From an uncultured Candidatus Saccharibacteria bacterium (GTDB taxonomy: Bacteria; Patescibacteriota; Dojkabacteria; J137), in assembly GCA_964635995.1 (NCBI GenBank), contig CAZWRA010000001.1:226-64225 (forward strand): a stretch of DNA of 64,000 bases, given 5' to 3'. The position numbers and the translations under genes are program-made. The notes beneath the pieces were generated by a model. The model searched no databases. It saw only the letters and a list, made by a program, of their open reading frames with translations, and was not told the origin of the DNA. Below are positions 4,717 through 58,900 of the stretch, in pieces; position 1 is the first letter of the stretch; every line of letters starts with the position of its first letter.

Positions 4717-5394
4717 GTGTCAAGAGGTAAAAAACTTACAATTGCAGTTCTTTTAGTTCTAACGCTTGCTTTAGCAGCTATCTCAACTTACGTAGCTCTA
4801 ACTTTAAATTCCGAACGAACTCCAGATGTAGGAGTTTCTGGATTTGGAGATTATGCAACTAGAGATTTATACGAGAACATAACTGTTTTCTTCGGAGGGA
4901 AAGACTGTGATGAATTTCTAAATAGTAATTTTTTTACTAATCAGACATTTGATAATTCGACTGTGTTTTCTTTCTCAAGTATTGAGAATAATTTAGAGGA
5001 TTTCGGTGCCTATGAATATCTTCCAACTTCATGTTCATATGTTTTACAAAATGATAATCGATTAAATTTCTTAGTTTATTCTTATGACTATGACTCATTT
5101 ATTGCAGAGTCAAGAGAAGAACTTTACTCAAGAATAAATGTTTTTGATCAAGTTCTAGATGAAGGAACATTTTCTAATACTGACTATTTTTTTGGAATTG
5201 AAAATGACAAATGTGTAACTCATTTCTTTCAATTAGATAATGAATTTGAGTATGCAAGATTAGAATACAACGTGGGTGAGTTAGATTGTTCAACTTTAAT
5301 AGAAGATAATAAAGCATTTAGTTCTAGAATATCTAGTGAATTAAATGAAACTGTTGAAACTGTAGAATATGTTACTAAATTAGAGTCAATATAA
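4717..5394 (+). CDS. Secreted / membrane-anchored protein with N-terminal signal-anchor; unknown function; likely co-transcribed with the downstream Cys-rich surface protein (TAATG overlap)
   Basis: GTG start directly after the upstream stop. N-region SRGKK followed by a hydrophobic h-region. Acidic, aromatic-rich mature part. Confidence 0.45.
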   Translation: MSRGKKLTIAVLLVLTLALAAISTYVALTLNSERTPDVGVSGFGDYATRDLYENITVFFGGKDCDEFLNSNFFTNQTFDNSTVFSFSSIENNLEDFGAYEYLPTSCSYVLQNDNRLNFLVYSYDYDSFIAESREELYSRINVFDQVLDEGTFSNTDYFFGIENDKCVTHFFQLDNEFEYARLEYNVGELDCSTLIEDNKAFSSRISSELNETVETVEYVTKLESI

Positions 5395-32927: not shown

Positions 32928-34060
32928 TAATACTTCCTGTTAACTGATAGATAGGTCCTACAATAATAATTGCTAGGAAACCAATCATTGCTCCAATAAA
33001 TACTAATAAAATTGGTTCTAATAATGTCGATAGATTGTTTGAAAGCTCTTCAACTTCTTCAGCATGATATTCATATAAATAACCTAAATTTTCTTCAAGA
33101 GTACCAGTACCTTCCCCCAACCTCAATCATTTTTATAAAGGAAGGAGGAAAATACTTTGGGTAGAAAAGTAGTGAGGATGCAACTGACTTTCCACTTTTT
33201 ACCTCATTTGCAACATCTTTTAAGGCTTTTTTATAGTAAGTGTTACTTACAGTGCCTGTTGCAATATCAAGAGCTGATACTAATGGAATCCCTGTTTCTA
33301 AAAGAATACTTAGTGTTCTTGCAAATGAAGCTAAGATGTTATGTTGTGTAAGTTTTTTAATTACAGGAAATTTTAATGAGAACCAGTCTTTAAACTTTTT
33401 TCCAGATTTTGATCTTAAGAACATAATAAAAAGAAAAATTGCTAATGCTAATCCTCCAGCTAGAAATAAAGCATTTGTACGTATAAATGCAGAAGCAGCA
33501 AGTATCCCTTTTGTTAAAGGTGGAATATTTTCAAAAGATGTAAAAAGCTCTTCAAGTTTTGGCAAAATTAAAAATATTACTCCAAGCATTTCAACAAAAG
33601 TCAGCATAAATACAATCGCAGGATAGATTAGAGCTCCTTGAACTTTTTTTTCCAAGAGTGTGTGCTTTCTTTAAATAATCAGAAAGAAAAAAAGGTTTTT
33701 CCCAAAGTGCCTTCCTGCTCACCAACAGAAATTACAGACATGATAATGTCTGAAAAAACTTTTGGATACTTTCTCATTGAATCAGACAAAGTCATTCCAT
33801 CACTAATCATGCCAGCAATTTCAATGTATTTTTTGAAAGTCTTTCGTCAGCAGTTTGTTCAGAAAGAGTAAGAACTGCATCATTCAAAGCAAGTCCAGAT
33901 CGTAACATAAGATATAGATTTCTTATTGAAACCAAAACTGCAAGTTTAGGTATACCACTAAAATAAATCTGTCCTCCTTTTTTCTTTTTTTGGGTAGTTT
34001 TCTCTCTTTAGCCATTATTCTTTTAATGCAGTTACTCTCATTAATTCAGATAATGAAATC
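32917..34060 (-). pseudogene. pilC: Type IV pilus / T2SS platform protein PilC/GspF, disrupted by at least two frameshifts (pieces 32917..33126, 33095..33655 and further fragments 33660..34060 in other frames)
   Basis: GspF-domain motifs in three different frames. They are …LETGIPLVSALDIATGT… …FPPSFIKMIEVGG, then LEPILLVFIGAMIGFLAIIIVGPIYQL, and upstream fragments …IRNLYLMLRSGLALNDAV… / ISDGMTLSDSMRKYPKVFSDIIMSVISVGEQEG. ORFs 33095..33655 and 32917..33126 overlap by 32 nt. Confidence 0.7.
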
Positions 34061-34065
34061 ACTCC

Positions 34066-35297
34066 TTATCTTAATTTCTCAACACCATCTTCAACAATTA
34101 ATTTAAGACCTTGTCTTCTTGCTTCGTTATAAATTTGATCAGTGTCAGCTCCAGCCATTATAATTTTTCTTATGCTTTCAGTAATTTCTAATACTTCATA
34201 AAGACCAATTCGGCCTTTGTATCCATTTTCTACAGATCCTTCAGGTACATTTGGTGCAAATAATTTTTCCCCAACTTTTAAATATGCAGCTAAGTCGGGT
34301 CTATATACTTTTAGTTCTTCATATTCTTCATTTGTTAACCTCACTTCCTTCTTTTATTGTTCGTCAATTTTTCTAGCTAAACGTTGCGCTATAACAACAT
34401 TTACTGTTGTTGCGAGTAAGTATGGTTCTACACTCATATCGATAAGTCTAGGAATTGTAGTTACAGCATCATTAGTGTGAATAGTAGATAGAACTAAGTG
34501 CCCTGTCATTGCGGCATTAGTTGCAATTTTAGCTGCCTCGGAATCTCGAATCTCTCCAATCATAATTACATTAGGATCCTGTGTCTTAGAATTGATCTCA
34601 GTCCGTTACTGAATGTTAAACCAGCCTTTTTGTTAACTTGAACGTGATTTATTCCATTAATTTCATATTCTACTAGATCTTCAACTGTAGTTATATTTAT
34701 ATCTCTAGAATTTATTGTTGTTAAAATTGCGTAAAGAGTTGTTGTTTTACCAGATCCTGTTGGACCTGAAGCAAAAATCGATCCATAAGGTTTTTTAAAT
34801 GCTTTTTTAACAATTTCATAATCTTTATCTCTTAGTCCTAAATCTTCAAGTTCAAATGATCTACCTTTTTGTGTTAAAAGTCGAATTATAACTTTCTCGC
34901 ATTTAGCTGTTGGAAGAATAGAAATTCTTGTATCTAACTTATCCTCAAAATCAAAAGCAATTCTTCCGTCTTGTGGCGCGAAATGTTCATCAGTTCGAAG
35001 CTTTGCATTAACTTTAATTTTAAATACTAATGTTTCTTCGTATCTTTTTTCTATTGTATAAAGGTCTTTTAAAATTCCATCTATTCTATATCGAACAACC
35101 ATATTATCTTCATGAGGTTCAAGATGGATATCAGAAGCACCTTTATTTAAAGCCGTTAAAACTATATCATTAAGCATTCCTGTTATACCTCTTTCCTTAC
35201 CATCCTGTTTCCCCTCTTCAATTAATGGTGCATCATCGGATTGTATTATCTCTTCTTCTTTTATAGATGTGTTTAATGACTTCTTGGCCATAATCAT
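34066..35297 (-). pseudogene. pilB: Type IV pilus assembly ATPase PilB/GspE split in three pieces (34566..35297, 34354..34563, 34066..34344) by one frameshift and one in-frame TAA
   Basis: Piece 1 ends …[18 protein letters not shown] but the -1 frame reads [14 protein letters not shown], joining Walker B. Walker A is GPTGSGKTTTLYA and the His box is [13 protein letters not shown]. Pieces 2 and 3 are in the same frame, separated by TAA (…ARKIDEQ*KKEVRLTNEEY…). C-terminal piece has GYKGRIGLYEVL. Confidence 0.8.
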
Positions 35298-35361: not shown

Positions 35362-35823
35362 TTATCGAGAAACTGAGATTGTAGTACCTTCTGCATCCGG
35401 TGCTGCGATTGTTACTCTTCCACTTGCTTCTTCGCAAATTGTATAACCTGTATCAGCTCCAGTTCCTGTTGAAGGATCCTGAGGAATTCCTACAATGTAT
35501 GTAGGTGTTAATGCTGTAGCAAGATCAGCATCTCCAGTTCCAATAACATCAGTTAATGGACAAGCTTGGAAAGAACCTCCAACAACTCCAGCAGCTGTTG
35601 CTAGTGAGTCTAAGTCGTTTCCTTGTTCTGAAGTATATTGTGTTACAGCATTTAGAATCTGTAATACATCTGAACTTCTTTGTGCATTTCTTGTGTCTCT
35701 AAAGTTTCTTGCAGGGTTAATTGCAATAAATGTAATTGTTGCAAGAATTGCAATTAAAGCAACAACTACAAGGATTTCAATAAGTGTGAATCCTTCTTTA
35801 TTTTTTTCTTCATTTTTATTCAT
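35362..35823 (-). CDS. pilA: Type IV major pilin (PilA-like)
   Basis: Canonical prepilin leader and N-methylation motif KEGFTLIEILVVVALIAILATI (G-1, F+1, E+5). 153 aa. Confidence 0.85.
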   Translation of the reverse strand: MNKNEEKNKEGFTLIEILVVVALIAILATITFIAINPARNFRDTRNAQRSSDVLQILNAVTQYTSEQGNDLDSLATAAGVVGGSFQACPLTDVIGTGDADLATALTPTYIVGIPQDPSTGTGADTGYTICEEASGRVTIAAPDAEGTTISVSR

Positions 35824-37175: not shown

Positions 37176-37949
37176 ATGATACTGTTTCTTGATCTGCAAT
37201 TTCTGTCATATAATCTAAATATGAATGAACTTAATTCACATAATTTCGATGCTAAAACGACACTTTTTAGTGGGCAAACATTTTTGTGGAGTAGACAAGG
37301 TAATGATTTAATAGGTTCTTTTAAGAATAAGATCATTATTTTGAGTGAGAGAAGAAATAAATGGTATTGGCAAACCTATCCCAATAAGGATGATTTTGAC
37401 TTTGTTAAAAATTATTTAAACTTAGATTTCGATGGTCAGAAGTTTATTACAAGTACAAATGATGAACATATAAGAAGTTCTTTTTCTAAATACCCAGGTT
37501 TAAGAGTTTTAAAACAACCTTTTGAAGAAACTATTCTCTCATTTATTCTTGCTTCGAATAAGAATATAAAAGCTATAAGAAAAACCTTTAATTTTCTTAA
37601 AGGAAAACAGAATAGATATATAAAAGTTGATAATAAGAAATACTTTTTCTTCCCTTCAATAGAATTTATTAATGATGTAGATATTTCTGTTTTACAAGAA
37701 TCGGGAGCAGGATATAGAGTTAAATATTTAAAAGATCTAGCTAATAAATTCGAAACAATAAAAACAAAAGGAGATTTTTCAGAAATAGCTAATTCACTAA
37801 AAAAAGTTAATGGAATTGGAGATAAAATTGCAGATTGTATAATGACTTTTTCATTAGGATTTAATAATATAACTCCTATAAATAGATGGTCTGAGCGTAT
37901 AATTACAGAACTTTATAATGATTTTTACTTTGAAAAAGTACTCAGATAA
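37176..37949 (+). CDS. ogg: 8-oxoguanine DNA glycosylase, OGG1 family (HhH-GPD)
   Basis: Colinear similarity to OGG1 blocks: TLFSGQTFLWSR (cf. LPSGQSFRW), ETILSFILASNKNIKAIRKTFNFL (cf. [24 protein letters not shown]), SGAGYRVKYL (cf. LGLGYRARYV), VNGIGDKIADCIMTF (cf. LPGVGTKVADCICLM, catalytic Lys conserved). Confidence 0.75.
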   Translation: MILFLDLQFLSYNLNMNELNSHNFDAKTTLFSGQTFLWSRQGNDLIGSFKNKIIILSERRNKWYWQTYPNKDDFDFVKNYLNLDFDGQKFITSTNDEHIRSSFSKYPGLRVLKQPFEETILSFILASNKNIKAIRKTFNFLKGKQNRYIKVDNKKYFFFPSIEFINDVDISVLQESGAGYRVKYLKDLANKFETIKTKGDFSEIANSLKKVNGIGDKIADCIMTFSLGFNNITPINRWSERIITELYNDFYFEKVLR

Positions 37950-37972
37950 AAGAGATTGGTTTACAAATAAAT

Positions 37973-38341
37973 TTGGCGAGAATACTGCTTACGCTGGTCA
38001 ACTTTTATTTGAATATATTAGAAAATATAATCCTAACAATTATTAAGAGTATGGGATGGTTTAGAAAATCAGATTGTATAGATTTTTATAAGATTCACGA
38101 AAGATTAAATTCATCGTCATTACTAACTCTTTTATGGCTTGCACATTCAAACATAACATTTAAAACTCCTACTGACATATCTACAATTGTAGGATACATT
38201 ACTGAAAATATAATAGCTAAAAGAATAATTGATGGATATGTAACACAAGAAGAAGTTGATTTTTTAAGAAATGATCTCTTATTTAATCCAACATATATAT
38301 GGAATACACAAAAAAATGAAACTATTACTAATGAGATATAA
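37973..38341 (+). CDS. Hypothetical protein
   Basis: 122-aa ORF, no motif. Confidence 0.35.
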   Translation: MARILLTLVNFYLNILENIILTIIKSMGWFRKSDCIDFYKIHERLNSSSLLTLLWLAHSNITFKTPTDISTIVGYITENIIAKRIIDGYVTQEEVDFLRNDLLFNPTYIWNTQKNETITNEI

Positions 38342-39307: not shown

Positions 39308-39543
39308 TTATTTTTTCTTTTAATTAAATCTTTCAAAGAAAATAAACCCCAGACAAGATTAATAATTAGAAAAGGCCAAGAGCAAATTAAATAAGCATAA
39401 ACTGCCAGTAATGTTCCAGAAAGAAAGTTTAAAAAATCATATGTAAAGTCAGTATTTTTAAGTTTGTCTGTTTGATTAAGTATAAAAGCTGATAAAGTTA
39501 AAAATGCACCAGAAATTCCGATTAATTGAATTACTATTTCCAT
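39244..39543 (-). CDS. Small membrane hypothetical protein (overlaps 3' end of rodZ-like gene)
   Basis: 99-aa hydrophobic ORF. Could be spurious. Confidence 0.25.
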   Translation of the reverse strand: MEIVIQLIGISGAFLTLSAFILNQTDKLKNTDFTYDFLNFLSGTLLAVYAYLICSWPFLIINLVWGLFSLKDLIKRKNNYSLIISLVVFRKTLYSVSKV

Positions 39544-39584
39544 ATTTTTTATTCTTTAATATCTTCTGAATATTCTCTTAGATT

Positions 39585-40793
39585 TTAATACTTTTTTCCA
39601 ACTAAATTTTTAGGCATATACTCCTGTTCTACTTTCTTTCCATTTTTCTCCTCTAGCCAAGGATATCTCGTATGTCCTTTTCCATACCCATGCTCTTTCA
39701 TTACTTTATTTGGAGCATTTCTAAGATGAAGTGGAATTGGATCAAGAGGTTTATTATGAATATCGCTGATTGCATTACTTATGCCTTCAGTTACAGCAAT
39801 TGATTTAGGACAAGAAGCTAAGTAAGTAGCGCATTGAGCTAAGATTAATTTTGCTTCAGGCATACCGATCATATTAACAGCTTGCATTGTTGAGGTAGCT
39901 ACAACTAAAGCAGTAGGTTTTGCATTTCCGATGTCTTCAGAAGCAAATATAACCATTCTTCTTGCAATAAAAACTGGATCTTCTCCTGCTTCAATCATTC
40001 AAGAAAGATAATGAAGAGTAGCATCTGCTTTTCCTCCTCTCATTGATTTAATAAAGGCAGAAATAGTGTCGTAATGTGCATCTCCCTTTTTATCGTATAC
40101 ACCAAATTTTTGTTGAAGAATATCTGAAACAATCTCTCGAGTTATTTTTTTATTGATTTTAGAAGCGAATTCTAAAGCATTAATAATTTTTCTTGCGTCT
40201 CCGTCTGCAAATGCAATTAAAAACTCTATCGCATCCTCATCCCATTTAATCTTTTTTATCTCTTTATTTGCTCGATTAAAAACTTCTAAGCATTCTTCAT
40301 CGCTTAACTTTTCAAATCTAAATACTCGACTTCTTGAAATTAAAGGAGCATTAATTTCAAAACCGGGATTTTCGGTTGTTGCTCCAATTAAAATTATAGT
40401 TCCGTTCTCAACATAGGGAAGAAATGCATCCTGTTGAGCTTTATTAAATCTATGAATTTCATCTACAAATAATACTGTTTCTCTAGCTTCTTCAATTTTT
40501 CTATGTTCAGCTAACTTTACAATCTCTCTAACTTCTTTTATTCCTCCAGTTACAGCTGAAAATGAAACAAAGTGTGCTTCTGTATAGTTTGGAATTAATC
40601 TGGCTAAAGTAATTTTTCCACATCCTGGAGGTCCCCAAAAAATCATTGAAGAGATATTACCTGATTCAATAATTTTACGAAGAGGTTTGTTCTTTCCTAG
40701 AATATGTTTTTGACCAATGAATTCATCAAGATTCGTCGGCCTTAGACTTTCCGTTATCATCCTTCTTTCTACCTGATGTAAAAAGCGTAACAA
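39585..40793 (-). pseudogene. rarA: Replication-associated recombination protein A (RarA/MgsA AAA+ ATPase) interrupted by an in-frame TGA at 39999..40001; probable true start MITESLRP at about 40760
   Basis: N-terminal ORF has Walker A GPPGCGKITLARLI, Walker B VLFVDEIHRFNK, sensor motifs. The downstream ORF is contiguous and in-frame and encodes the MgsA_C domain (MIEAGEDPVFIARRM…PKSIAV…HLRNAPNKVMKEHGYGKGH). TGA aligns with a conserved Arg (…HYLS*MIEAGEDP vs …YLARMIEAGEDP). Confidence 0.8.
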
Positions 40794-40931
40794 GATCTTC
40801 AGGTTTTTTTGAAATTATTGATCTAAAGAAACCCATGAACTCATTATACTGCAGTCTATCTAAATACCTAAATACATAATTTAACATTGGGTCTGTATAG
40901 TTCTCTCCAGTCTCGACTCTAACTGTATTTC

Positions 40932-41594
40932 CTAATAAATCTTCTTTGAGCTTCGTCCAGTCTTTTGGTGTTTTTTATACCTTGGTACTCCTTTTTCTTC
41001 AAACTCAAAAAACTTTGTCTTACATGCTAACAAACCAATTATATCTAGAACATAATTACTAACATGTATTAATGGTAATGCCTGTTCTTCTGGACTACTT
41101 TGAGTTCTTAGTTGTTGTGAAATATAAAACCCTCTCGCAAGTTTAAACATAACAGGAAACGGTTTTAAATTCTCTACTTCAGCCCTCATTAAAACGACAC
41201 CTGTAATTCTTCTTTCATTAAAAATCTTTTTATCAAGCTCTCCTGTTGTTGAACCTCCAAAGAATATTCTAATTCTATGTGGATTATCTATGTCTGAGCT
41301 AAAACCAATGCTTGAAAATAGCTCAAGAAGATCATATGTACAAGATACTAGGTAAGCGGAAAATCTTTCGAGTTCAACTTCAGAAGTTGATCTATAAAAT
41401 GATGCAACTTGTTCAAATTTATCAATAACAGATTGATCTATTTCAACCCTAATTCCTAACCCATGTCCTTTAGAATCTAAGATAACTTTCTTGTCCTCTA
41501 AAAGAGCATTAACAGGATCCCTGTTAACTGCAGCAATTTCGACAGTTTCTCTTACTAAATCATTATCATCTGGGGGTTTAAGATCTGACATCAA
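40932..41594 (-). CDS. Hypothetical protein (220 aa); C-terminus may be truncated by a homopolymer (A6) frameshift, since an 80-codon stop-free continuation exists in the +1 frame
   Basis: No motif recognised. Downstream region 40794..40930 translates without stops in the +1 frame (…KDWTKLKEDLLGNTVRVETGENYTDPMLNYVFRYLDRLQYNEF…). Confidence 0.4.
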   Translation of the reverse strand: MMSDLKPPDDNDLVRETVEIAAVNRDPVNALLEDKKVILDSKGHGLGIRVEIDQSVIDKFEQVASFYRSTSEVELERFSAYLVSCTYDLLELFSSIGFSSDIDNPHRIRIFFGGSTTGELDKKIFNERRITGVVLMRAEVENLKPFPVMFKLARGFYISQQLRTQSSPEEQALPLIHVSNYVLDIIGLLACKTKFFEFEEKGVPRYKKHQKTGRSSKKIY

Positions 41595-41804
41595 AAAATA
41601 GCATCAATAATATTACATAGAGCACTGCAATATATTTTGAAAGTGTGATTTTGTCAAATTCTATCTAGTGTGAAAGTAGTTTTCCCATTATCAGCATTGG
41701 ATTACAAGCGACAATATGAGCAACAAATTCTAAAAGCTCTTCATTTTTAATATTATAAAAGAAACTTATAACTAAAGCATTTGAGTGAACTTAATTTGAA
41801 AAAA

Positions 41805-42110
41805 CTAATCGTGAAGAATTACTTCAAAAGCACCTTTACCTCCATTATAAAGGTTTGCAGATTTAAATTCAGAGACTAATTTGTTCTTTGGGAGAAGTTT
41901 TCTTACTAAAGGCCTTACTAACTTACCGTGACCAGTTATTACTAATAAGAATTTGTTTCCAAGTAAGTAATTATCTTCGATAAACTCAAAAAGAATTTTT
42001 TCAACTTCAAAAGGATCAAGTTTATCGTAAAGATGAAAATCCAGTTCGTTTTGTTGAAAGAAAAATGAGGTTAGATTATTCGATGAGTGATCTTTGTATT
42101 TATTAGCCAT
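41805..42110 (-). CDS. Smr-domain protein
   Basis: LDFHLY…LLVITGHGKLVRPLVRKLL…GGKGAFEVIL matches the Smr domain pattern (DLHG…IIHGKG…GG.G). Confidence 0.65.
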   Translation of the reverse strand: MANKYKDHSSNNLTSFFFQQNELDFHLYDKLDPFEVEKILFEFIEDNYLLGNKFLLVITGHGKLVRPLVRKLLPKNKLVSEFKSANLYNGGKGAFEVILHD

Positions 42111-43879
42111 TAATAAATCTCAAAATTTTCTAACAATTTTTTATCTCCCTCAATTTGGTATTTTAATAAATCTCTATAAATACCTTCTCTTGAAGAAAGT
42201 TCTTTAGGAGTTCCTGAATCAACAATATTTCCATCGCCAAGAACAATAATTTTATCTACATTTTGTATAGTTGAGAATCTATGAGCAATAATAATTACAA
42301 TCCTGTCTTTCATTAACGCATCCATTGCTGTTTGAACTTCATTTTCAGATTTTGAATCTAAATTACTAGTTGCTTCATCCATAATAACAATAGGTGTATT
42401 ATGAAGAATTGCTCGAGCAATTTGTATTCTTTGCTTTTGTCCACCAGACAATCTAACTCCTCTTTCACCAACTTGAGTATCTAACTTGTTTTCAAATTTT
42501 TCTACAAAATCCCATGCATTTGCAGCTTTTAGAGCGCTAATAATTTTTTCATCGCTAACTTCCATTCCATAAGCTACATTTTCTCTAATTGTTGTAGAAA
42601 AAAGCTCATTTTCTTGGAAAACTAATGATATCATTGATCTAACTTCATTATGTGAAAGATCATTATAATCCTTTCCATCTACAAGAATTGAACCTCCTGT
42701 AGGATCATAGAACTTCATAATTAGATTAATGATAGTTGTTTTTCCAGCTCCAGAATGACCTACTAAAGCTACTTTTTCATTTTCATTAATTGTAAAGTCA
42801 ATTTTTTTTAAAACATTTTTCTCAGATTTTTCATATCCAAAAGAAACATTTTTGAATTCAATTTTTCTTCCAACTAAATTCTCAGCAGAATATTCTTTAT
42901 CATATTGTTCAACTTGTTCAAGATCTAAAATTTCAAATAATTCTTTCGTTCCAGCTTCAGTCTGTTGAATCTGAGTTAAAATAAATGACATAGCGAAAAG
43001 AGGGATTCTTGCCTGCATTATAAGCTGAGTTAAAAGAAAGACATCTCCGAATGTATAGTTCCCAATAAAAGCATTATAAAAAATCACAACATTCATTCCT
43101 AAAAGAATCAATTCTAAACTGAAATTTCTAAGAAAATCAAAAATATGAAATGTTCTACTTTGTTTTGCAAAAATTTTATTAACTTCTACTTGTTCAGAAT
43201 CTACAAAGTCATATTCTTTCTTTTGATTTATATAGCCTTTAACTAACTTCATATTAGTTATAACTTCCTGAATTCTTCCTCTTGTTATATCTTCATGTTT
43301 ATTTTTACCTACTTCTTTCTCTCCCCATTTCTTAGCAGAATACTGACTTAAACCTATGTAAATAGGGAATAGAAGCAATGTAAACATAGCAACAGGTGGA
43401 CTAAATACAAACATAGTCACTACTGTAAAAATGCTTAACAGAATATTAGGGAAAATAAAATTTGAAGCTGTATTCATAAACCCTTGAACTGCAACAATAC
43501 CTCTATTTAGCTGGTTAACTATTTTTCCTGAAATTTCGGTATCAAAGTAGCTTTGAGGAAGTCTGAAGATATGGTTATAAAATTTTGTAATTAAAAATCT
43601 TCTTAATTCTCCTCCAAAATGGTCTCCAATTCTTTGTGAAATTGAACCTAGTGCAATGTTAAAAATACTTAATCCAAATCCTATACCTATAAATAAAAAC
43701 ATCTTATTTATACTCGCATCTCCAGTTTCTATTTGTAATTGAATCTCATCTACAACAACTTTTGAAATAATAGGAATTATCTGTCTTAATAATGAAGTAA
43801 AGATAGAAAGCCCAAGTATAGAGTACATAACTTTATGTAATGGCTTAGAAATTTTTATAAGTCTGACTATGTTTTTCAT
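42110..43879 (-). CDS. ABC exporter, fused permease + ATPase (MsbA/LmrA-like)
   Basis: 6-TM N-terminal domain. Walker A GHSGAGKTTIINL, signature LSGGQKQRIQIARAIL, Walker B VIMDEATSNLD. Confidence 0.9.
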   Translation of the reverse strand: MKNIVRLIKISKPLHKVMYSILGLSIFTSLLRQIIPIISKVVVDEIQLQIETGDASINKMFLFIGIGFGLSIFNIALGSISQRIGDHFGGELRRFLITKFYNHIFRLPQSYFDTEISGKIVNQLNRGIVAVQGFMNTASNFIFPNILLSIFTVVTMFVFSPPVAMFTLLLFPIYIGLSQYSAKKWGEKEVGKNKHEDITRGRIQEVITNMKLVKGYINQKKEYDFVDSEQVEVNKIFAKQSRTFHIFDFLRNFSLELILLGMNVVIFYNAFIGNYTFGDVFLLTQLIMQARIPLFAMSFILTQIQQTEAGTKELFEILDLEQVEQYDKEYSAENLVGRKIEFKNVSFGYEKSEKNVLKKIDFTINENEKVALVGHSGAGKTTIINLIMKFYDPTGGSILVDGKDYNDLSHNEVRSMISLVFQENELFSTTIRENVAYGMEVSDEKIISALKAANAWDFVEKFENKLDTQVGERGVRLSGGQKQRIQIARAILHNTPIVIMDEATSNLDSKSENEVQTAMDALMKDRIVIIIAHRFSTIQNVDKIIVLGDGNIVDSGTPKELSSREGIYRDLLKYQIEGDKKLLENFEIY

Positions 43880-43971
43880 AAAAACAAAACTATTATAACT
43901 CTAAACACTAAACTTTTCAGAGAAAAAGAGCCCACTTTATGCGGACTCTTTAATTATTGAGCAGATTCGTC

Positions 43972-45291
43972 TTAAATTAAAGAAACTGAATGAACAATTT
44001 CATTTGTATAGGAGTTTCTTAGAACTGCGTTATCTCCTTCAACACTTAATTCTACTCCTGTGAAGTAGCTTGGCATTTGGATAAATGACAATGTTTCTGT
44101 AGCTACATCAAAGATTATTAACTGAGCATTAAGGTCCGTTGTTCCACAATCACCGCAAGTTGTTTGATCAAATACTAATAAATTATTTCTAGCAGTGTCA
44201 TGAACCCAAGTCTGTTCTTCATTAGGTAATCCAAAAGGATATCCATAAGTAAATGGAGTAGCAGAAGAATAAACTGTCTCCTCAACTAAATCTGTTACAT
44301 TTACCTTAGTTACTCTATCAGAGTAAAGACTATATATACTATCTCCAATTTTTGAAGCTGCTAAAGCGTCACCTCCTTTCTGAGTAAGAGTTACAAAATC
44401 GCCTGTGCTTTTCTGGAAAGAAACTTCTCCTGTAGTTTAATTGTATTCTATGAAATTAATATCTCTATTAAGTTCTGCAGCAGTATCTAACCAATTATAG
44501 TACTCATCAAATGATCCGAATCTATACTTAACTTAAAAATTGTTTGTAGCTGGATTGTATTCAACTAAAATGTTTTGATCGTTATTATTTCTATATGTAA
44601 ATCTTAATCTTCCAGTTTCGTTTGAAATGAAGAAATCAAACATATCCATTCTGCTTTCTGATTCAGGGAATGTATTTAATGTATATGAATACCAGCTTTG
44701 TGATGATTCAATCCATCTAACTAATCCACCTGTTGTATATGCATTTGAGTTAATTCTTCCCCAAAGTTCTCCATTAGCAACAAATAAATCAACATCTACT
44801 CCTGTACTTACAGCTAAAACAGACTCCCATCCTCGAACTGAACCTGTAGCTAAATCAATCCTTGCTACTCCATCGAATGAATCTACCCAAAGATCACCGT
44901 TAAAGTAAACAAAGCTAATGTTTGAAGTTCCTGGGAACCCCATAGATTGAGTCCAAGTATTAACTATTTGTCCAGATTGCAAATCAAGTTCTAAAATATC
45001 ATATTCACCAGGAAACTGACTCTCTCTTGCTTCATCAGTACAAATTGTAAACATAGAATCGTTAACAATAATGAACTCTTGTTGTCCTCCTCCGCAACCA
45101 TCTGGAATTAATAGACTTCTTGCTACTAAATCTCCATTAGGATTAAAAACCATAATTACTGAAGGATTTACAGTTTTAATGAATAAATGATCTGCATAAA
45201 CTTGTGCGCTTAATGGGTATGTTAAATCTGTATTGTCAGTTAATGTATATTCAAAATTAGTATCAAAATATCTATCATCAATAGTTGTTAC
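43972..45291 (-). pseudogene. C-terminal beta-rich (propeller-like) portion of a large secreted protein gene continuous in frame with the DUF5648 repeat gene upstream, interrupted by three in-frame TAA codons (about 45292, about 44533, about 44437)
   Basis: Manual translation shows one reading frame open from 45894 to 43972 except three TAA. The last 158-codon segment (TTGEVSFQKSTGDFVTLTQKGG…NEIVHSVSLI) has no start codon of its own. ORF-track piece 44533..45153 is the middle segment. Confidence 0.5.
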
Positions 45292-45894
45292 TTATTCAAA
45301 AGAAGACATAAAAACATTGTTATTTTCAAAAGCATTTAAGTTTAGTACTTTAGGAAATACGTAAAAAACTATTCCTTCATACTCGTATATAGAAGATAAA
45401 TCTCCCTCAATATAATCTTTTTCAGGCACATCTACAGTAAATACATGGGCTTGTCTAATATTACTCCAGAATTGAAATACAGGAACTGAGCTTTGTGAAG
45501 ATTGTGTAGTCTCTGCACAATAAGCTACTGCCTCATAATCCCAATTAGGATTTGTGTCTTCAATATATTCTTTCTCAGCTTCAGAAGGTGTATAGAAATG
45601 AACTTCTTTAGAAGGATTATAGAATCTATAAACTTCTGTTCCATTACTACAAGATCCATCGAATTTGTAAGCTTCTAATACAATCCCTTCGTAATTCCAG
45701 TTTGGATTAGTATTTTTAACGTATTCTGCCTCAGCTGAATCAGCAGTATAGAAGTGCGCTAGGGAGACGGGGCTATAAAATCTATAAATAGGGGTTGTTG
45801 CTTCTTGCGCATTAACTTTATTAATCCCTAAAACAATTGTTAAGAAAAGAAAGGATAGGGAGACTATTATCGAAAACAAAAACATCTTTTTCAT
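45292..45894 (-). CDS. Secreted protein with three DUF5648-type repeats (YRFYNP…HFYT…E…NWxYEGI)
   Basis: Signal peptide MKKMFLFSIIVSLSFLFLTIVLGINKVNA. Three repeats resembling the clostridial cell-wall-protein DUF5648 motif (RLYNPnsGeHFYT…GWkYEGia). Confidence 0.65.
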   Translation of the reverse strand: MKKMFLFSIIVSLSFLFLTIVLGINKVNAQEATTPIYRFYSPVSLAHFYTADSAEAEYVKNTNPNWNYEGIVLEAYKFDGSCSNGTEVYRFYNPSKEVHFYTPSEAEKEYIEDTNPNWDYEAVAYCAETTQSSQSSVPVFQFWSNIRQAHVFTVDVPEKDYIEGDLSSIYEYEGIVFYVFPKVLNLNAFENNNVFMSSFE

Positions 45895-46009
45895 AGAAAC
45901 TAAAATAAATAAATATAAATTTCTCTATTTATAAGACTAAAATTACCATTAAAAGTGACAAGTCCTTATTACAAAAATTGTAATAATAAAGTTATAATAT
46001 GAATATCAG

Positions 46010-46083
46010 GGGCCGTAGCTCAATTGGCTAGAGCGCATGGATGGCATTAATGAGGTTGCGGGTTCGATCCCCTCCGGCTCCAT
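46010..46083 (+). tRNA. tRNA-Ala (anticodon GGC) with G3:U70; anticodon stem carries a G-A mismatch
   Basis: GGGGCCG-TA-GCTC-AATTGGCTA-GAGC-G-CATGG-ATGGCAT-TAATG-AGGTT-GCGGG-TTCGATC-CCCTC-CGGCTCC-A. Near-identical architecture to E. coli tRNA-Ala(GGC). 30:40 is G:A. Confidence 0.8.
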
Positions 46084-46097
46084 TTACTAAAAGTTTA

Positions 46098-46436
46098 TGC
46101 AAAAAGAAGTTTTCATAAAAGCAAAGAAAATTATTAATAATCCAGACATTATTATTGATATGTTTACTTCAACATTTGAATGGATAAGCCCAAATGCACT
46201 TGATATATTTAAATATGAGTAAAGTGAGATTATAGGAAAAAAGCGACAACTTTAGTAACTGCAGAATTAGATGAAGCTATAAAGATACTGTTAGATTTAA
46301 TAAAGTCAAAAAAAGGAACTAGAGAGATAGAATTTGTAGATGGCTTAGGTCATAAAATAAGAATTAATGCTGATTTTCAAGTTTTAACTTTTAATAAAGT
46401 TCCCTATCTTATTGCTAAAATCATTTCAATAAAATA
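46098..46436 (+). pseudogene. PAS-domain protein remnant (in-frame TAA plus a frameshift at an A6 run)
   Basis: MQKEVFIKAKKIINNPDIIIDMFTSTFEWISPNALDIFKYE*SEIIGKK then +2 frame ATTLVTAELDEAIKILLDLIKSKKGTREIEFVDGLGHKIRINADFQVLTFNKVPYLIAKI, a PAS-like fold pattern. Confidence 0.5.
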
Positions 46437-46452
46437 AATTTTAAAGAAGACT

Positions 46453-47438
46453 ATGAAAGTTAAGCTTAAAGAATTAGAGTCAATCACACTAAACGCTGTA
46501 AAGAAGTATTGGTATAAGGATAATGAGGCTGAAATAATCAAAAAAGTCTTACTTTATGCTCAGTTAAGAGGTAATAATCAAGGCATAGTAAAGTTGATTG
46601 GAAATGGTATTCCAAGAATTGAAACGGGAAAAGAACCTACTATTGAGAAAGAAACTAAAGTCTCAGCTTTACTAAATATGGAAATTATACTCATGCTATG
46701 GTTGTTATGGATAAATTAGTAGATATAGCAACTAAGAAAGCAATTGAAATAGGAGTAGGAATTGCAGGGAACCACGATACAAGTGAGTCAACTGGAGCAC
46801 TAGGATATTACGTTAATAAAATTGCAGAACAAGGCTTAATCGGAATTGCATTTGCATCTGCACCGTTTCAAACAAACGCCCCTTTTGGAGCAAACGAGGC
46901 AAGATTTTGTACAAATCCACTAGCTTTCGGAATTCCCACTGAGTCTGATCCAATAATTTTAGATATGCCCACTTCAGCTATGGCTTATTATGGATTAATT
47001 GAGGCTAAGACTGCAGGGAAAAAACTTTCTGACAAAGTAGGATTCGATAAAAATGGTAATGAAACTAATGACCCTGCAGAAATAATGTCTGGAGCGCTAA
47101 AAACATTTGGAGGACATAAAGGTTCAGGACTCGCTTTAATTGTCCAAATTTTAGCAGGAGCTTTTGTTAAAGCGGACTCATTTAATAATGATAGTGACAA
47201 CGCTGGTAATCTAGTCGTTCCTATTGATCCAGAGATATTTTTAAGCAAAGACGATTTTAGGAAAAGTGTTACAGAAATAATTAATAAGGTTAAATCCGCA
47301 AGAAGAATAGATAATGTTGAAGAGATTTTTATTCCTGGAGAACGAGGAAATAATTTTCAAAATGAAGTTGTTACTTCAGGCGAAATTGAGATTGAAGATA
47401 ACTTATGGACTGAATTACAAAAAGTTGTTAATTCTTAA
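46453..47438 (+). pseudogene. Ldh_2 family (malate/L-lactate/sulfolactate-type) dehydrogenase split by a frameshift near 46700
   Basis: C-terminal ORF has the Ldh_2 hallmark GGHKGSGLALIVQILAG. N-terminal ORF (46453..46719) supplies the N-terminal domain. ORF2 frame read back gives …NGNYTHAMVVMDKLVD, overlapping ORF1. Confidence 0.7.
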
Positions 47439-48736: not shown

Positions 48737-49558
48737 ATGAATGACCATAGATTTAATCATTCTGAAGATGATATACAACCAATATCACAAAGAGAAAGAA
48801 TTGATAACTATGTCTCTAAAGGTCTTGTACCTCCTTCAGATATACGACTACTCTATCAATTAAATCAAGGACAGTATACATATTATGGAGCGGAAGGACA
48901 TAGAAGCGAAGTTATTCAAAGACTGACAAGAGATTTAGTCCATACTATGAACGTAGCTATGCGATGGACAGTAGAAAGAGGGGTGACATGGGAGAATGCA
49001 ATGTCAGCAAGTCTTATTTTTGGTCCAGCATTTACTGATGATTTTAAAGAAATTATTCCTTTAGTTCTTAATGCATACGAAGGTTCTACAGTAAATTTTC
49101 TTACACATGTTCATTTAGTTGCAGGCGGTTATGCAGCACAAGCAGCAGAACTTGCATTAGAGAATTTAAGGTCAGTAGGATTTCGTTATAATATGATTTC
49201 TGATGATTATTATTTAACTATAATTCGGGAATTAGGATTAGTAAGTTCTCAAAATAATAAATTAAATAAGGTATTAAAAGGATTAAGTTTCAACTCAGAT
49301 CCAAATGTATTTGCTGCTGAGGCTTTAATCCGACTTGAATCTAAATACATTATTCAGGATTTCAGAAGAATGGTTACGAAGGAAGGAGGTTACGTTTACT
49401 GTCCTGCCTCAACTGTTATGAGAAATGTTGCTTTATTAACTGTTTATAACATGTACCTATATAAAAAAGATAAATCTATAATAAAGTTAAGTAAAAACCT
49501 TCTTGTTGAAAAAGATATACTCGTACTTAAAGACTTATTTTTAAGCAGTATTACTTGA
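48737..49558 (+). CDS. Hypothetical protein (273 aa), convergent with the small-gene cassette
   Basis: No recognisable motif. Locally higher GC codon usage (Ala/Gly-rich). Confidence 0.4.
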   Translation: MNDHRFNHSEDDIQPISQRERIDNYVSKGLVPPSDIRLLYQLNQGQYTYYGAEGHRSEVIQRLTRDLVHTMNVAMRWTVERGVTWENAMSASLIFGPAFTDDFKEIIPLVLNAYEGSTVNFLTHVHLVAGGYAAQAAELALENLRSVGFRYNMISDDYYLTIIRELGLVSSQNNKLNKVLKGLSFNSDPNVFAAEALIRLESKYIIQDFRRMVTKEGGYVYCPASTVMRNVALLTVYNMYLYKKDKSIIKLSKNLLVEKDILVLKDLFLSSIT

Positions 49559-49786
49559 CTCTTTCAATTCTTCTAAAATTTTCTCGTATTGAGTAATTTT
49601 TTCCCTTACACCTTCAATAGTTTGACTAAAGGAGAAATGATCATTTTCAGTTTCACCATCATCTTCCTTACTGAGTCTACTCTTTGGAATGGTCATCCAT
49701 CCCAATGGAAAGTCTTGATCAAACTCAGAACCTAACTGTTCTAATAATCTCTCATAACCTTGTAGTCTAAGATGTGTAAGTTGCAA
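49541..49786 (-). CDS. Small protein paralogous to the 91-aa ORF at 50323..50598; in-frame with the upstream 167-aa ORF across a TGA
   Basis: MQLTHLRLQGYERLLEQLGSEFDQDFP vs ELTIQGFEKLLELLGEDFDISIP. TTG start. ORF 49796..50299 ends TGA, then three codons ENK, then this ORF in the same frame. Confidence 0.35.
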   Translation of the reverse strand: MQLTHLRLQGYERLLEQLGSEFDQDFPLGWMTIPKSRLSKEDDGETENDHFSFSQTIEGVREKITQYEKILEELKESSNTA

Positions 49787-49795
49787 CTTATTTTC

Positions 49796-50299
49796 TCAAT
49801 CTAAAATCCTAGCCTCTGTTATAAAATTTGGAGGAAGATTTCCATTTCTTTGTTTTTCCAGAACCGTTTCAATTGAGAGAGGAAGATTTACAGAGATATT
49901 TCTAAATTCATTCAAAAGAGCATTATAAGCCGAATATGATTGAGATGCGTGAGAGCCATCCGAAGGAATTGTTGCAAATATATTTCTTAGGCTTTCAGCT
50001 AATCTATCGGTTGAGGTAAGTAAGGCACTTTTCACTTTCCCTTTTTTCTCATCTACAAAAAGAGTAAAATCTTCAGGATTAAATAAATTTAGTTCCGGAT
50101 TAGTAGTTCTAAAAAAAAGTTTAGTATGTGTTGAAGATAAATAAACTGTGCCATCGTCCAGCATAGTTCCTACTTTTCCTAATACTCCCTGTTCATTATC
50201 ATATGTATAAACCCTGTCTCGAGGTATTTCTATAGTTGCATCTCCAAATCTAACTGTTAAATCATCTGTTGATAATCGTTTGTCTACTAAATCCGTCAT
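49796..50299 (-). CDS. Hypothetical protein (167 aa)
   Basis: No motif. C-terminal …NEFRNISVNLP resembles the N-terminal region of the 91-aa paralogue (…SAFRNDLEYY). Confidence 0.4.
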   Translation of the reverse strand: MTDLVDKRLSTDDLTVRFGDATIEIPRDRVYTYDNEQGVLGKVGTMLDDGTVYLSSTHTKLFFRTTNPELNLFNPEDFTLFVDEKKGKVKSALLTSTDRLAESLRNIFATIPSDGSHASQSYSAYNALLNEFRNISVNLPLSIETVLEKQRNGNLPPNFITEARILD

Positions 50300-52885: not shown

Positions 52886-53426
52886 CATTTCACAAGATCA
52901 ATATTCAGTTTTACTAGGAGTATTAGCTATAGCAATTATTTCTTTATCAGTTCTAGGCTTTATTGCATACAAACAACAAAAAAGAATTAAATATCTTACA
53001 ACACCTAGATATGGATTTATAGGCAAACCTCTTGCCTTAGCAGTTGTAATGTTAATGGGATTTGGAACGATAGGTGCAATTTATTTGAGACCTGAGCCAC
53101 AACCTGACAGTATTTCTGTAACAGATAGAAATCAAATTGTACTAGAAGTTAAATATACTGAACTTGATGATCCGCTAAATCTATTCGAACTTATAGTTAC
53201 TCCTGTTATTGAAGAAAAAGAATGGGGTGACCCAAGTCTAAACTTTAATGTTATGTGGGAAATAAATAAAGCAGGTAAAACAGTAATTAGAAATGAAGAA
53301 AATCTTAATCTTAGTAATCCTGGTGGAATTCAGGAGTATTTAGAACCAGGATTAAATACTATTAGAGTTGGAGTGAGTGTAGGATTTGTAACTCAGGAAA
53401 AAGTAATAACAATATTTGTTGAGTAA
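52875..53426 (+). CDS. Membrane hypothetical protein
   Basis: Two TM helices. Overlaps neighbours by 11 nt and 1 nt (operon). Confidence 0.4.
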   Translation: MENSISQDQYSVLLGVLAIAIISLSVLGFIAYKQQKRIKYLTTPRYGFIGKPLALAVVMLMGFGTIGAIYLRPEPQPDSISVTDRNQIVLEVKYTELDDPLNLFELIVTPVIEEKEWGDPSLNFNVMWEINKAGKTVIRNEENLNLSNPGGIQEYLEPGLNTIRVGVSVGFVTQEKVITIFVE

Positions 53427-54481
53427 TGACAGAAAAAGAAAAAATAGCTTCTAAAATTAAAGATAGAATAAGCTCTTCTGAAAATATCTTAATAGTATGT
53501 TCTAGGCCAGTTGATCCTGACTCACTAGGATCAGGTCTTACCCTAAACTGGTGGATAAAAGAAAATTATAATAAAGAAACTGATTTAGTTATATTTTCTT
53601 CAATTACTGAAAAATTAAAACACTTTCCTAATCTTAAAGATATTGATGTTTCTCAAGTTAATAATGTTAATTGGGAAAAATATGATTTAATTATTCTTTT
53701 AGATTCTTCTTCTTGGAATTTATTACTTACAAATAACTATAAAAGTGTTTTAGAAAAGACAGGAAAAGACAATTTAATTTCAATTGATCATCATTCGAAA
53801 GATGCTTTTCATTCAGAAGTTCCATTAGCATTAAGAATTGATGATATTTGTACTGCAAAAATTATCTATGATTACTTAATTAAAGATTCCAAAATTAAAT
53901 TAAATGAAGATTCTGCAACATGGATGTATTATGCATTAATTGATGATAGCAGGTATTTCAAAAATGAAATGTATCCTGGAATTTATAGCTTTGCTGAAGA
54001 TCTAATTCAAGCAGGTGCTAGACATGATGAAGTAGTAAACATGAGTACAGACAAAGATAGTATGTTGTTTTTATCCTTTGGAATAGAAAATACTGAATTT
54101 TACCCTGAGTTAGAAACAACTTTATTAGCTATAGATTCAGATAAAAATGAAAAGTTAAAAGAAAAATTTGGTGAAAATTGGAGATTAAAAAGTATTCATA
54201 AATATTATGTTGAAGTGTTTATGAGAATTATAGAAGGCTATAACTATGGAATTATGTTTGAAGAAGCACTTGAAGGAGGAGTAAATACAGGTTGGAGAAC
54301 AAGAAATTATGGAGATAATGTTTCTATTCAAAGGGTACTAGAAAAAATTGGATTTACAGCAGGAGGTCATTTTGGAGCTGGTGGTGGACAAATTAGCAAC
54401 ATTTCTATAGAGGAAGCAAAGCTAAAATTTATAGATGAGATGTCTAAGGCCTTAAAAAATAAAGATCAATATAACCTTTAA
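53426..54481 (+). CDS. nrnA: DHH/DHHA1 phosphoesterase, NrnA-like (nanoRNase / pAp phosphatase)
   Basis: DHH motif (ISIDHHS) and DHHA1 GGGH-type motif (AGGHFGAGGG). Confidence 0.75.
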   Translation: MTEKEKIASKIKDRISSSENILIVCSRPVDPDSLGSGLTLNWWIKENYNKETDLVIFSSITEKLKHFPNLKDIDVSQVNNVNWEKYDLIILLDSSSWNLLLTNNYKSVLEKTGKDNLISIDHHSKDAFHSEVPLALRIDDICTAKIIYDYLIKDSKIKLNEDSATWMYYALIDDSRYFKNEMYPGIYSFAEDLIQAGARHDEVVNMSTDKDSMLFLSFGIENTEFYPELETTLLAIDSDKNEKLKEKFGENWRLKSIHKYYVEVFMRIIEGYNYGIMFEEALEGGVNTGWRTRNYGDNVSIQRVLEKIGFTAGGHFGAGGGQISNISIEEAKLKFIDEMSKALKNKDQYNL

Positions 54482-55916: not shown

Positions 55917-58900
55917 TTGAGTATTAATAATTTCCATATGGCTGATTTCGTTCACCTACATGTTCATACACAATACTCACTGTTGGATGGTCTAAATCGA
56001 ACAGAGAAACTTTTTGAAAAAGTTAAAAATTCCGGTATGGAAGCTGTTGCAATAACAGATCATGGTGTTTTATACGGTGCTCCTGAATTTTGGAAAATGT
56101 CTAAGGATTTTGATGTTAAGCCAATAATTGGATGCGAAATGTACCTTGCTCCAACAGATATGACCTTAAGATCTGATGTTGATGGAATCAGATATTATCA
56201 TCTTCTTTTAATTGCAAAGAATGACATAGGTTATAAAAATTTAATTAAGCTTGTAACTAAATCCCACATTGATGGAATGTACTATAAACCTAGAATTGAT
56301 TTAGATTTATTAAAGAAGCATTCAGAAGGATTAATTTGTACTTCAGCTTGTCTTGCAGGTCCATTATCGAGATATATTGTAAGAGGTGAGTATGATAAAG
56401 CTGAATGGTGGTTAAAAGAGCTTCATGGAACTTTTAAAGACGATTTTTATCTTGAGATACAAAGAAATGGAATTCGATGTGAGGATGAAATTGATAAAGC
56501 ATTAATAGCTAAGCTACCTATCTCTGAACAAGAAGATCAATTAGAAACATTAAAACAACAAGTTAAGGTAAATAAGAAACTATACGATTACTCAAAACAA
56601 TTTAATATTCCAATTGTAGCAACTACAGATGCTCACTTCTTAGATGCTGATGATAAAGATACTCAGAAGATTCTTTTCTGTATTAGAGATGGAAAAAGTT
56701 TAGATGATCCAAGTGCTATGAATGGATATGTCGAAACATATATAAAAACTCCTGAAGAATTAAAAAAAGATTTTTCTGACATTCCAGAAGTTTTAGAGGA
56801 AACTTTAAAAATAAATGAAAAAATAGAAAAGATAAATTTAAAACCTGATAGAGTTCAACCGCATTATTGGAATTTACCTGAAAATTCTACTGCAAGAGAT
56901 GAACTCTCAAAACAGGTTTATGAAGGAGCTTACAATAAATATACTACTGACGATCCTAAAAAAGACCCTAGCACTTTTTCTATAGACGAAATTAAAAAAC
57001 ACTTACCAGAAGAAATTAAAAAACAACTTGATTATGAATTAATGGTAATTGAGAAAATGGGATACAACAATTACTTCTTAGTTGTTGGAGATTTAATGCA
57101 ATTTGCAAGAAAGAATGAAATTGTTGTTGGTGTTAGAGGATCTGCTGCAGGAAGCTTAGTTTCATATTGTTTAGGCATTACTAATGTTGAACCTCTAAAA
57201 TGGGGGCTGGTTTTTGAAAGATTTCTAAATCTAGAGCGAGCCTCTCCTCCTGATATTGATATGGATATCCAAGACGATAGACGAGAAGAGTTAATTGATT
57301 ATGCTAGAGAAAAATATGGAGAAACATCTGTAGCAGGAATTATTACTTTCGGAAAACTAGCAACAAAAGCTGCTATTAGAGATGTTGCGAGAGTGATGAA
57401 TATTGATTTAGCAACAGCAGACAAACTTTCTAAAAAAGTTATTGTTCTTTTCGGAAAACCATTTACTTTTGAAAAGATGATGGGGGAAGATCCAGAATTT
57501 AAAGAAATGGTAGATTCTGATCCAAGGCTACAAAGGCTTGGTGAAGTTGTAAAGAAAATTGAAGGATTAAATCGACATACTGGAGTGCACGCAGCAGGTT
57601 ACTTAATTACTCCAGGTCCAATCGATGAGTTTATGGCATATCAAAAAGACTTAAAAGATCCAGATCTTTTAGTAACTCAAATGGATGGAACTTGGATCGA
57701 TAAATTAGATTTCATGAAGTTCGACTTTCTTGGACTTAGAACTTTAACTATTATTAAAGATTGTATTCTTTATGTTGAAAAAAGACATGGAATAAAAATT
57801 GACCTAGAAAATATTAATGTAGATCCTGATGAACCTCCTGAAAATTATGATCAAAAGGCTTTTGAAGTATTTAGAAACGGTGAAACAATTGGAGTTTTTC
57901 AGTTTGAGTCTCCTCCGATGCAAAGATATTTAGTAGACCTAAAACCTACAACAATGACTGACATATGTTTTATGGCAGCTGCCTACAGACCTGGACCTAT
58001 GGCTTACATTCCAGATTATATTAAGATTAAAAATGGAGATAAAGAAGCTAATTATTTAATTCCTGAACTTGAACCAATATTAAAAGCAACTCTTGGCTTT
58101 CCAGTTTATCAGGAACAACTTCTACAAATCTGTATGCAACTTGGAGGATTTACTCTTGGAGAAGGAGATGTAATTAGAAATGCACTTAAGAAAAAACAAT
58201 TAGACATATTAAAAGAAAAAGAAGAGGACTTTAAAAAGTACTTTGTCGAAAATTATTCTCAATATGGAGAGGAAATTGCAAGCGAAATCTGGAAACAGCT
58301 TGAGCCTTTTGCATCTTACGGATTTAATAAGGCTCACGCTGCTAGTTATGCTGCTGTAGCTTACTGGTGCGCATATCTGAAAGGGAACTACCCACTAGAA
58401 TTCATGACAGCATTAATGCATGCGGATATTGAAAACACAGATAGAATTGTTATTGATATTGGTGAAGCAAAGAGACTTGGATATAAAGTTTTACCTCCAA
58501 ACATAAACATGTCTGATGTGTATTTTAATCCTGAAGGAAAAGATGGAATTAGGTTCGGATTAGGAGCAATAAAAAATGTTGGTAAAAAGCTATGTGAAAA
58601 AATAATTAGAGAAAGAAATCAAAGAGGTGAGTTTAAACATTTTGATGATTTTGTTTATCGAGTTGGAAGTAAAAATATTAATAAAAGAGCTGTTGAATGT
58701 TTAATTAAAGCTGGAGCATTGGATGATTTTGGAGATAGAAATGCGCTTTTAAAAATATGCTCAGAAGTTTTTGAAAAAATATCAGCTAAAGAAAAAGCAA
58801 AAGAAGTAGGCCAAGCTGGACTATTTAGTGTCGAGAGCGAACATGATGGTCTTGAGCAAGTGGACAAAACTCCCTTTCCATCATTTACTGATGCAACTGA

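Follow-up and report, generated by a model that had tools for sequence, protein, structure and literature searches.

A probable pseudogene of one exported DUF5648 and beta-propeller protein, interrupted by three in-frame TAA codons, in a Candidatus Dojkabacteria genome

In the 64-kb stretch of contig CAZWRA010000001.1 (GenBank assembly GCA_964635995.1) analysed here, hereafter the window, the minus strand from position 45894 to 43972 carries one long reading frame that is interrupted by three TAA codons. We consider this locus to be, most probably, a genuine pseudogene of an ordinary kind, descended from a gene for a single exported protein of about 640 amino acids (aa) and killed by three single-base changes that each created a TAA codon. 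The ancestral protein would have comprised a signal peptide, a DUF5648 module and a beta-propeller domain of about 450 aa. The source organism is a member of Candidatus Dojkabacteria, within the candidate phyla radiation (CPR; Patescibacteria), and uses the standard genetic code; its DnaE (55917..59510) is 79% identical to the DnaE of two Candidatus Dojkabacteria genomes.

Translation of positions 43966-45894 confirmed the central observation of an initial annotation of this DNA, namely that the locus is one frame of 640 codons broken by in-frame TAA codons. The frame holds 640 sense codons and exactly three internal stops, all of them TAA, at codons 201 (45292..45294), 454 (44533..44535) and 486 (44437..44439), while a fourth TAA at 43972..43974 would be the terminator of the ancestral gene, homologues ending within a few residues of this point. 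The G+C content of the window is about 31%, and a random frame of such composition would contain about 0.08 stops per codon; as some 50 stops would thus be expected by chance in 640 codons, the frame is or was coding. The two open reading frames (ORFs) listed previously, 45292..45894 (200 aa; ORF1) and 44533..45153 (206 aa; ORF2), were recovered at the same coordinates. The last of the four segments into which the stops divide the frame had been described as 158 codons without any possible start codon; it has 154 codons, and a TTG at 44091 and a later ATG do occur in it, only after 115 start-free codons.

The approximately 450 codons of residues 191-640 (43975..45324), which all three TAA codons interrupt, are homologous to an uncharacterised family of extracellular beta-propellers. 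The C-terminal segments (about 440 codons) had no Pfam match above threshold, the only sub-threshold one being to DUF6923 (E 0.005), and a word-index protein search with the 439-aa C-terminal part returned no homologues. An exhaustive HMMER scan of 1.84 billion representative proteins gave 72 matches, one of which is the window's own ORF2, leaving 71 homologues. The initial annotation had proposed to align the conceptual full-length translation to homologues, and this comparison produced single-stretch alignments: the intact proteins P0002 (506 aa) and P0003 (523 aa) align to query residues 14-434 (E 8.5e-34) and 30-434 (E 3.1e-24), respectively, each crossing the second and third stops uninterrupted. 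A profile built from 13 homologues, over its positions 57-438, aligns as a single domain to conceptual residues 191-602 (E 6.8e-60) and spans all three stops, and tblastn of the conceptual protein against the P0002 locus gave one high-scoring segment pair covering residues 195-639. Codons 454 and 486, and less clearly codon 201, therefore lie within what is one uninterrupted stretch in intact homologues. At the second stop, straight after a conserved Trp, the homologues have Thr, Asn, Glu or Val, and at the third Ser, Asp or Glu. These alignments support the view that segments 2-4 derive from a single ancestral domain.

Structure prediction points the same way. The AlphaFold model of the read-through sequence is one compact all-beta domain (predicted local distance difference test score, pLDDT, 84.5; predicted template modelling score, pTM, 0.85), which takes residues from all segments, and the stops lie at model residues 16, 269 and 301. 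Because they fall within the modelled fold, no fragment would be expected to form the propeller domain alone. The downstream fragments have no signal peptide; ORF2 itself begins at an internal Met, likewise lacks such a peptide and would yield a piece of propeller that is not closed. The suggestion of a propeller-like C-terminal region in the initial annotation is thus in keeping with the model, in which the read-through sequence is predicted as one domain of beta-propeller type that superposes on solved propellers, if with low TM-scores of 0.2-0.4. Its likeness to propellers of the Reg_prop/PorZ_N type (the periplasmic sensor domains of BT4663 and BT4673, and the N-terminal propeller of PorZ) is one of fold class and not of family membership. 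WD40 proteins score as well as these in superposition on the model, the window sequence has no profile match above the gathering score to either Reg_prop (PF07494) or PorZ_N (PF21544), and these two profiles match 3 and 6, respectively, of the 71 propeller homologues.

The family to which the propeller part belongs is unnamed and lacks a Pfam model; it is represented by 71 cluster representatives that share a domain of about 420 aa, with conserved Cys, Trp and Gly positions visible. Its members carry interchangeable N-terminal anchors, either a transmembrane helix, a lipoprotein signal or an SLH domain, and the propeller domain is therefore extracellular. Several close members lie on low-G+C contigs of CPR-like appearance. 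P0004 (locus L012, ENA contig ctg119028_2x_l, 3649..5100), the propeller's closest homologue, is itself split over several frames, and upstream of it stands a transmembrane anchor, not DUF5648. Consensus errors are likely on this contig, because its name suggests 2x coverage and because its glutamine synthetase and TraG-like genes are also in pieces.

ORF1 (45292..45894, minus strand) is the sole piece that retains both a start codon and an export signal. It consists of a Sec-type signal peptide, a complete DUF5648 domain and a 20-aa tail that ends at the first TAA. The signal peptide (45808..45894), MKKMFLFSIIVSLSFLFLTIVLGINKVNA followed by QE, was read from the translation; its basic N-region (MKK) precedes a hydrophobic core, and the cleavage motif is V-N-A (VNA/QE). 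The DUF5648 domain (PF18885; residues 35-180, 45355..45792) covers the profile from end to end (1-134 of 134) with an E-value of 6.6e-32 and 111 bits against a gathering cut-off of 25. The translation and the Pfam match bear out the earlier description of this ORF as a signal peptide followed by repeats, and three internal repeats of the YRFY..HFYT type are indeed present, but together they form one complete DUF5648 domain and not a triple DUF5648. For the proposal that DUF5648 is a clostridial module of cell-wall-binding type, we found no link in this analysis or in the DUF5648 literature examined.

In the literature on other members, DUF5648 is a small three-bladed beta-alpha propeller linked to glycan recognition. 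Known modules include the C-terminal receptor-binding domains of the Bacteroidales toxins BSAP-2 and BSAP-3 as well as auxiliary domains of GH70 enzymes, and in one enterococcal endolysin DUF5648 has been handled as a putative cell-wall-binding domain (bioRxiv 10.64898/2026.04.26.720912). The module of ORF1 is like these in covering the full profile and in having three internal repeats. It differs from the DUF5648 homologues fetched in its position, being N-terminal and straight after the signal peptide, whereas theirs occupy the C-terminal end of larger proteins, or a place close to it. This applies also to the closest ORF1 homologue among those fetched, the 675-aa Dojkabacteria protein MCA9381263.1 (51% identical), and in four of the five ORF1 homologues fetched no more than about 10 residues separate DUF5648 from the protein end.

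The initial annotation regarded the locus as possibly the remains of one large secreted protein. This stands for segments 2-4, which the single-stretch alignments unite in one domain, and less securely for the attachment of ORF1; we nevertheless hold it to be probable that ORF1 and the propeller formed one ancestral gene, with the join across the first stop moderately supported by the sequence. ORF1 and the propeller part share a frame with zero intergenic bases, although a shared frame alone would arise by chance in one case in three. After the first stop there is no start codon for 46 codons, and segment 2 has neither signal peptide nor anchor. The domain start of the four closest homologues (P0002, P0003, P0004 and P0022) is marked by the motif F-x3-[FY]-x9-[YLF]-F, which recurs with exact spacing at residues 195-210 of the conceptual protein, so that the TAA at residue 201 occupies motif position 7; in this gapless motif alignment the homologues have Glu (P0002), Gln (P0003), Glu (P0004) and Asn (P0022) in place of the stop. 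Shuffling of residues 181-200 reproduced the motif in 315 of 20000 trials (0.016). The profile and tblastn alignments begin at residues 191 and 195, that is, upstream of the stop, and the AlphaFold pLDDT around the junction is 87. Finally, the only terminator-like hairpin of the locus (43925..43951, minus strand; 11-bp stem, 5-nt loop, then UUCUCU), found by eye and by folding, follows the fourth stop (free energy -16.4 kcal/mol, z -2.9). No terminator-like structure follows stops 1-3, and a strict terminator scan of 43700..46300 returned none.

Several observations weigh against a single gene and would fit two. In that case ORF1 would be an intact gene for a small secreted DUF5648 protein with its native stop at 45292, followed by a propeller remnant that had lost its start and membrane anchor by 5' truncation and later acquired two nonsense mutations. 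ORF1 does hold a complete DUF5648 domain, a domain that, as noted above, usually lies close to the protein end in the homologues fetched, and none of the 71 propeller homologues carries DUF5648. The profile score hardly depends on the residues upstream of the first stop (189.5 bits with them, 190.1 without), 9 of 200 shuffles doing as well, and both BLASTP and local-pair MAFFT place the boundary motif, and with it the start of homology, after that stop. Against two genes stand the absence of intergenic bases, of a start codon or ribosome-binding site ahead of the homologous region and of a terminator after the first stop, as well as the spacing of the boundary motif, a more informative test than the profile score, the starting points of the alignments and the confidence of the model at the junction; on balance, we regard two genes as unlikely. 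The propeller part is dead in either case.

A more general concern is that the gene is really intact and that the TAA codons are sequencing, assembly or consensus errors, or that the locus is a chimera of strain haplotypes, each with at most one lesion. The window comes from a metagenome-assembled genome and contains many broken genes, and all sequence support derives from one sample, SRR10095374, whose Logan contigs are short (1.5-4.7 kb), with one boundary inside the gene, as modest coverage or strain branching might produce. Two of these contigs are nevertheless 100% identical to 44106..46175 and 39480..44134 and between them include each of the three TAA sites. A second assembler thus arrives at the same bases, albeit with reads that are probably from the same sample. 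ORF1, the ABC-transporter gene and the Ldh_2 fragment, the two last being neighbours described below, were each found on Logan contigs of this sample, and the same proteins are on record from a 65,342-bp NCBI contig. The two contigs meet inside the last pseudogene segment, at 44106..44134, in a 29-base overlap whose 29-mer is unique in the window; strain variation or low coverage may lie behind this break. As a source of the stops, random error is implausible, because only 5.6% of single-base changes in the AT-rich target ORF create a stop, so that three would imply about 50 errors in 1.9 kb, in spite of which the flanking genes (ABC transporter, umuC, uvrA and dnaE) are intact, with 59-81% identity to the orthologues of relatives. 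Nor do frameshifts elsewhere in the window fall in homopolymers, and we consider an artefact very unlikely.

Least probable of all, in our estimation, is that the TAA codons are decoded, through reassignment, a suppressor tRNA or programmed read-through, and that the full-length protein is still made. The complete preservation of the frame without an indel, and a divergence of the downstream segments that does not detectably exceed that of intact homologues, would be compatible with decoding. Stop usage and tRNA content lead us to reject it. TAA terminates 41 of the 59 ORFs in the window, among them conserved genes whose ends coincide with those of the orthologues; TGA and TAG account for 9 each. 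An Rfam scan of the 64 kb found only three tRNAs, Gln(CTG), Ser(GGA) and Ala(GGC), none with the anticodon TTA. Moreover, the lesions of other genes in the window include TGA codons and frameshifts, and this speaks for decay rather than for a change of code. Reassignment of TAA is not known in bacteria.

Decay by three nonsense substitutions and no indel had been called unusual in the initial annotation. This is true only mildly: given the lesions in the neighbouring genes (about 2-3 nonsense and at least 8 frameshifts), the chance of such a pattern is about 0.01-0.03, a figure that applies to a pattern noticed after the fact. Codons that are prone to become stops in AT-rich DNA (GAA, TTA, TAT, AAA) are abundant in the target frame, the fraction of stop-creating changes is as given above, and the neighbours too are broken by nonsense as well as by frameshift. 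The all-nonsense pattern is no sign of a special mechanism. A diversity-generating retroelement or phase variation was considered and set aside, as the distances between the stops are 750 and 100 bp and none lies in a repeat, with no search for repeats or a reverse transcriptase having been made.

The gene is located exactly between the tRNA-Ala(GGC) gene (46009..46082, plus strand) and the start, at 43879, of an intact ABC-transporter gene (42110..43879, minus strand), which served as the downstream synteny anchor. Orthologues of this transporter, with 72-80% identity, are present on long contigs of four relatives, in the gene order umuC (with umuD in two), tRNA-Ala(GGC) in two, ABC transporter, smr and mgsA. 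In all four, the tRNA-Ala gene or umuC/umuD adjoins the transporter gene, and both the target gene and Ldh_2 are absent; in loci L007 and L008 the tRNA is directly beside the transporter gene, where the pseudogene intervenes in the window. The interval from umuC to the ABC transporter, which in the window (43880..47428) holds two pseudogenes and a remnant, is almost empty in L006, L008, L009 and L010, and in L007 it contains three unrelated genes between umuC and the tRNA. The surroundings of tRNA-Ala(GGC) are thus a variable spot, and the target gene is, as judged from these comparisons, accessory and, being absent from four relatives, lineage-specific. Insertion as part of a mobile element integrated at the tRNA was also considered; no integrase is present among the nearby ORFs examined, and the gene abuts the 5' end of the tRNA and not its 3' end.

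A point that counts against a pseudogene is that no close orthologue, intact or broken, was found, be it by the word-index search or by pattern scans of genome and metagenome contigs with the conceptual protein, and that tblastn against five syntenic loci of relatives (L006-L010) gave no match, so that no intact orthologue stands at the syntenic site of the four relatives. In consequence, the ancestral codons and the time of inactivation are not directly readable. On a coarse scale, inactivation looks recent, because no excess decay is detectable after the last stop: segment 4 is 26% identical to P0002 and 21% to P0003, against 25% between P0002 and P0003 in the same columns, and a conserved Cys pair is kept. 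This agrees with the suggestion of the initial annotation that the gene was recently inactivated, the similarity of the segment to the homologues being on a par with that among the homologues themselves.

We propose that three single-base changes produced TAA at codons 201, 454 and 486 of an accessory gene under relaxed selection, in a region where many genes decay. Translation would now end at codon 201 and at most a mature DUF5648 fragment of about 170 aa would be exported; the downstream pieces, having no export signal and belonging to a propeller that cannot close, would be dead. Attachment to host cells is the generally assumed way of life of CPR bacteria, and on this ground a role of the ancestral product in recognition of an envelope or host surface is plausible. 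Large propellers are typical ligand-binding scaffolds. The product may have been a cell-surface or secreted binding protein with two modules, its ligands plausibly being glycans of the host or of the cell envelope.

The locus is not special within its surroundings, because at least 7 other genes between 33 and 50 kb of the window are broken, making at least 8 within about 17 kb in all; relatives keep most of them intact. On the far side of the tRNA lies a member of the malate/L-lactate dehydrogenase family Ldh_2 (46453..47438, plus strand), disrupted by a one-base deletion near 46690 that is not in a homopolymer and is also present on Logan contig L011. The repaired protein matches PF02615 over its whole length (1-333 of 333). 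The mgsA/rarA gene (39585..40793, minus strand) has an in-frame TGA at 39999-40001 inside the MgsA_C domain, directly followed by an ATG, where four Dojkabacteria relatives have AGA or AGG (Arg) in intact genes of 397-403 aa. Genes for type IV pili or type II secretion are decayed over 33095..35297: a pilB-like ATPase gene (34066..35297, minus strand) is disrupted by a frameshift near 34575 together with an in-frame TAA at 34354-56, and a pilC-like gene (33095..34066, minus strand) reads through at least three frames, while a pilin-like gene (35362..35823) looks intact. Three further genes are split over two frames in comparison with L007, namely a gene for an 8-oxoguanine glycosylase of OGG_N type (37176..38034, plus strand), the orthologue of a 290-aa gene (about 40729..41594, minus strand) and a 113-aa gene beside tRNA-Ala (46097..46410, plus strand).

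At 49544..50299 (minus strand), a 167-codon ORF is followed by a TGA (49796-98) and 84 more stop-free codons in the same frame, with no family match and no orthologue in the loci of the relatives. The gene at 53426..54481 is intact in the window (351 aa) and corresponds to two overlapping ORFs of 216 and 148 aa in L007 (GCA_964437465.1, 1592..2640); the genomes of other Dojkabacteria thus also contain broken genes, or else errors of assembly. For two large intact ORFs, 5394..8435 (plus strand, 1013 aa) and 30637..32478 (minus strand, 613 aa), Pfam gave no match at E <= 1e-5.

This accumulation of lesions raises the question of whether the lineage, with the pseudogene as one symptom, is undergoing accelerated gene erosion or hypermutation, possibly tied to the broken OGG-like and mgsA genes. 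If 8-oxoguanine repair were lost, mutation would be tilted towards G-to-T, for instance from GAA to TAA, and such a bias could explain why the lesions of the target are all nonsense at sites where homologues often have Glu. We regard this as rather doubtful, but if true it would describe a mutator or decaying Dojkabacteria lineage and not a standard streamlined CPR genome.

In several respects, the locus resembles the classical nonsense-mutation pseudogenes known in general from AT-biased genomes of host-dependent bacteria: its stops are premature when compared with intact homologues, the gene is accessory and sits in a variable region with decaying neighbours, and its codons are prone to become stops. 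It differs in that its lesions are all nonsense, the neighbouring pseudogenes having frameshifts as well, and in its host lineage, since a high coding density and a scarcity of pseudogenes are what is usually reported for CPR genomes (PMC9166423).

We suggest that this dead accessory gene be annotated as one pseudogene and not as two hypothetical proteins. The analysis also documents an unnamed family of extracellular beta-propellers that has no Pfam model and uses variable anchoring modules, and the occurrence of DUF5648 next to the propeller, seen in no homologue found, suggests that this combination is new. More broadly, a dense cluster of pseudogenes in a Dojkabacteria genome contrasts with the usual picture of CPR genomes, and is relevant both to the quality of their annotation and to ideas on ongoing gene loss in episymbionts.
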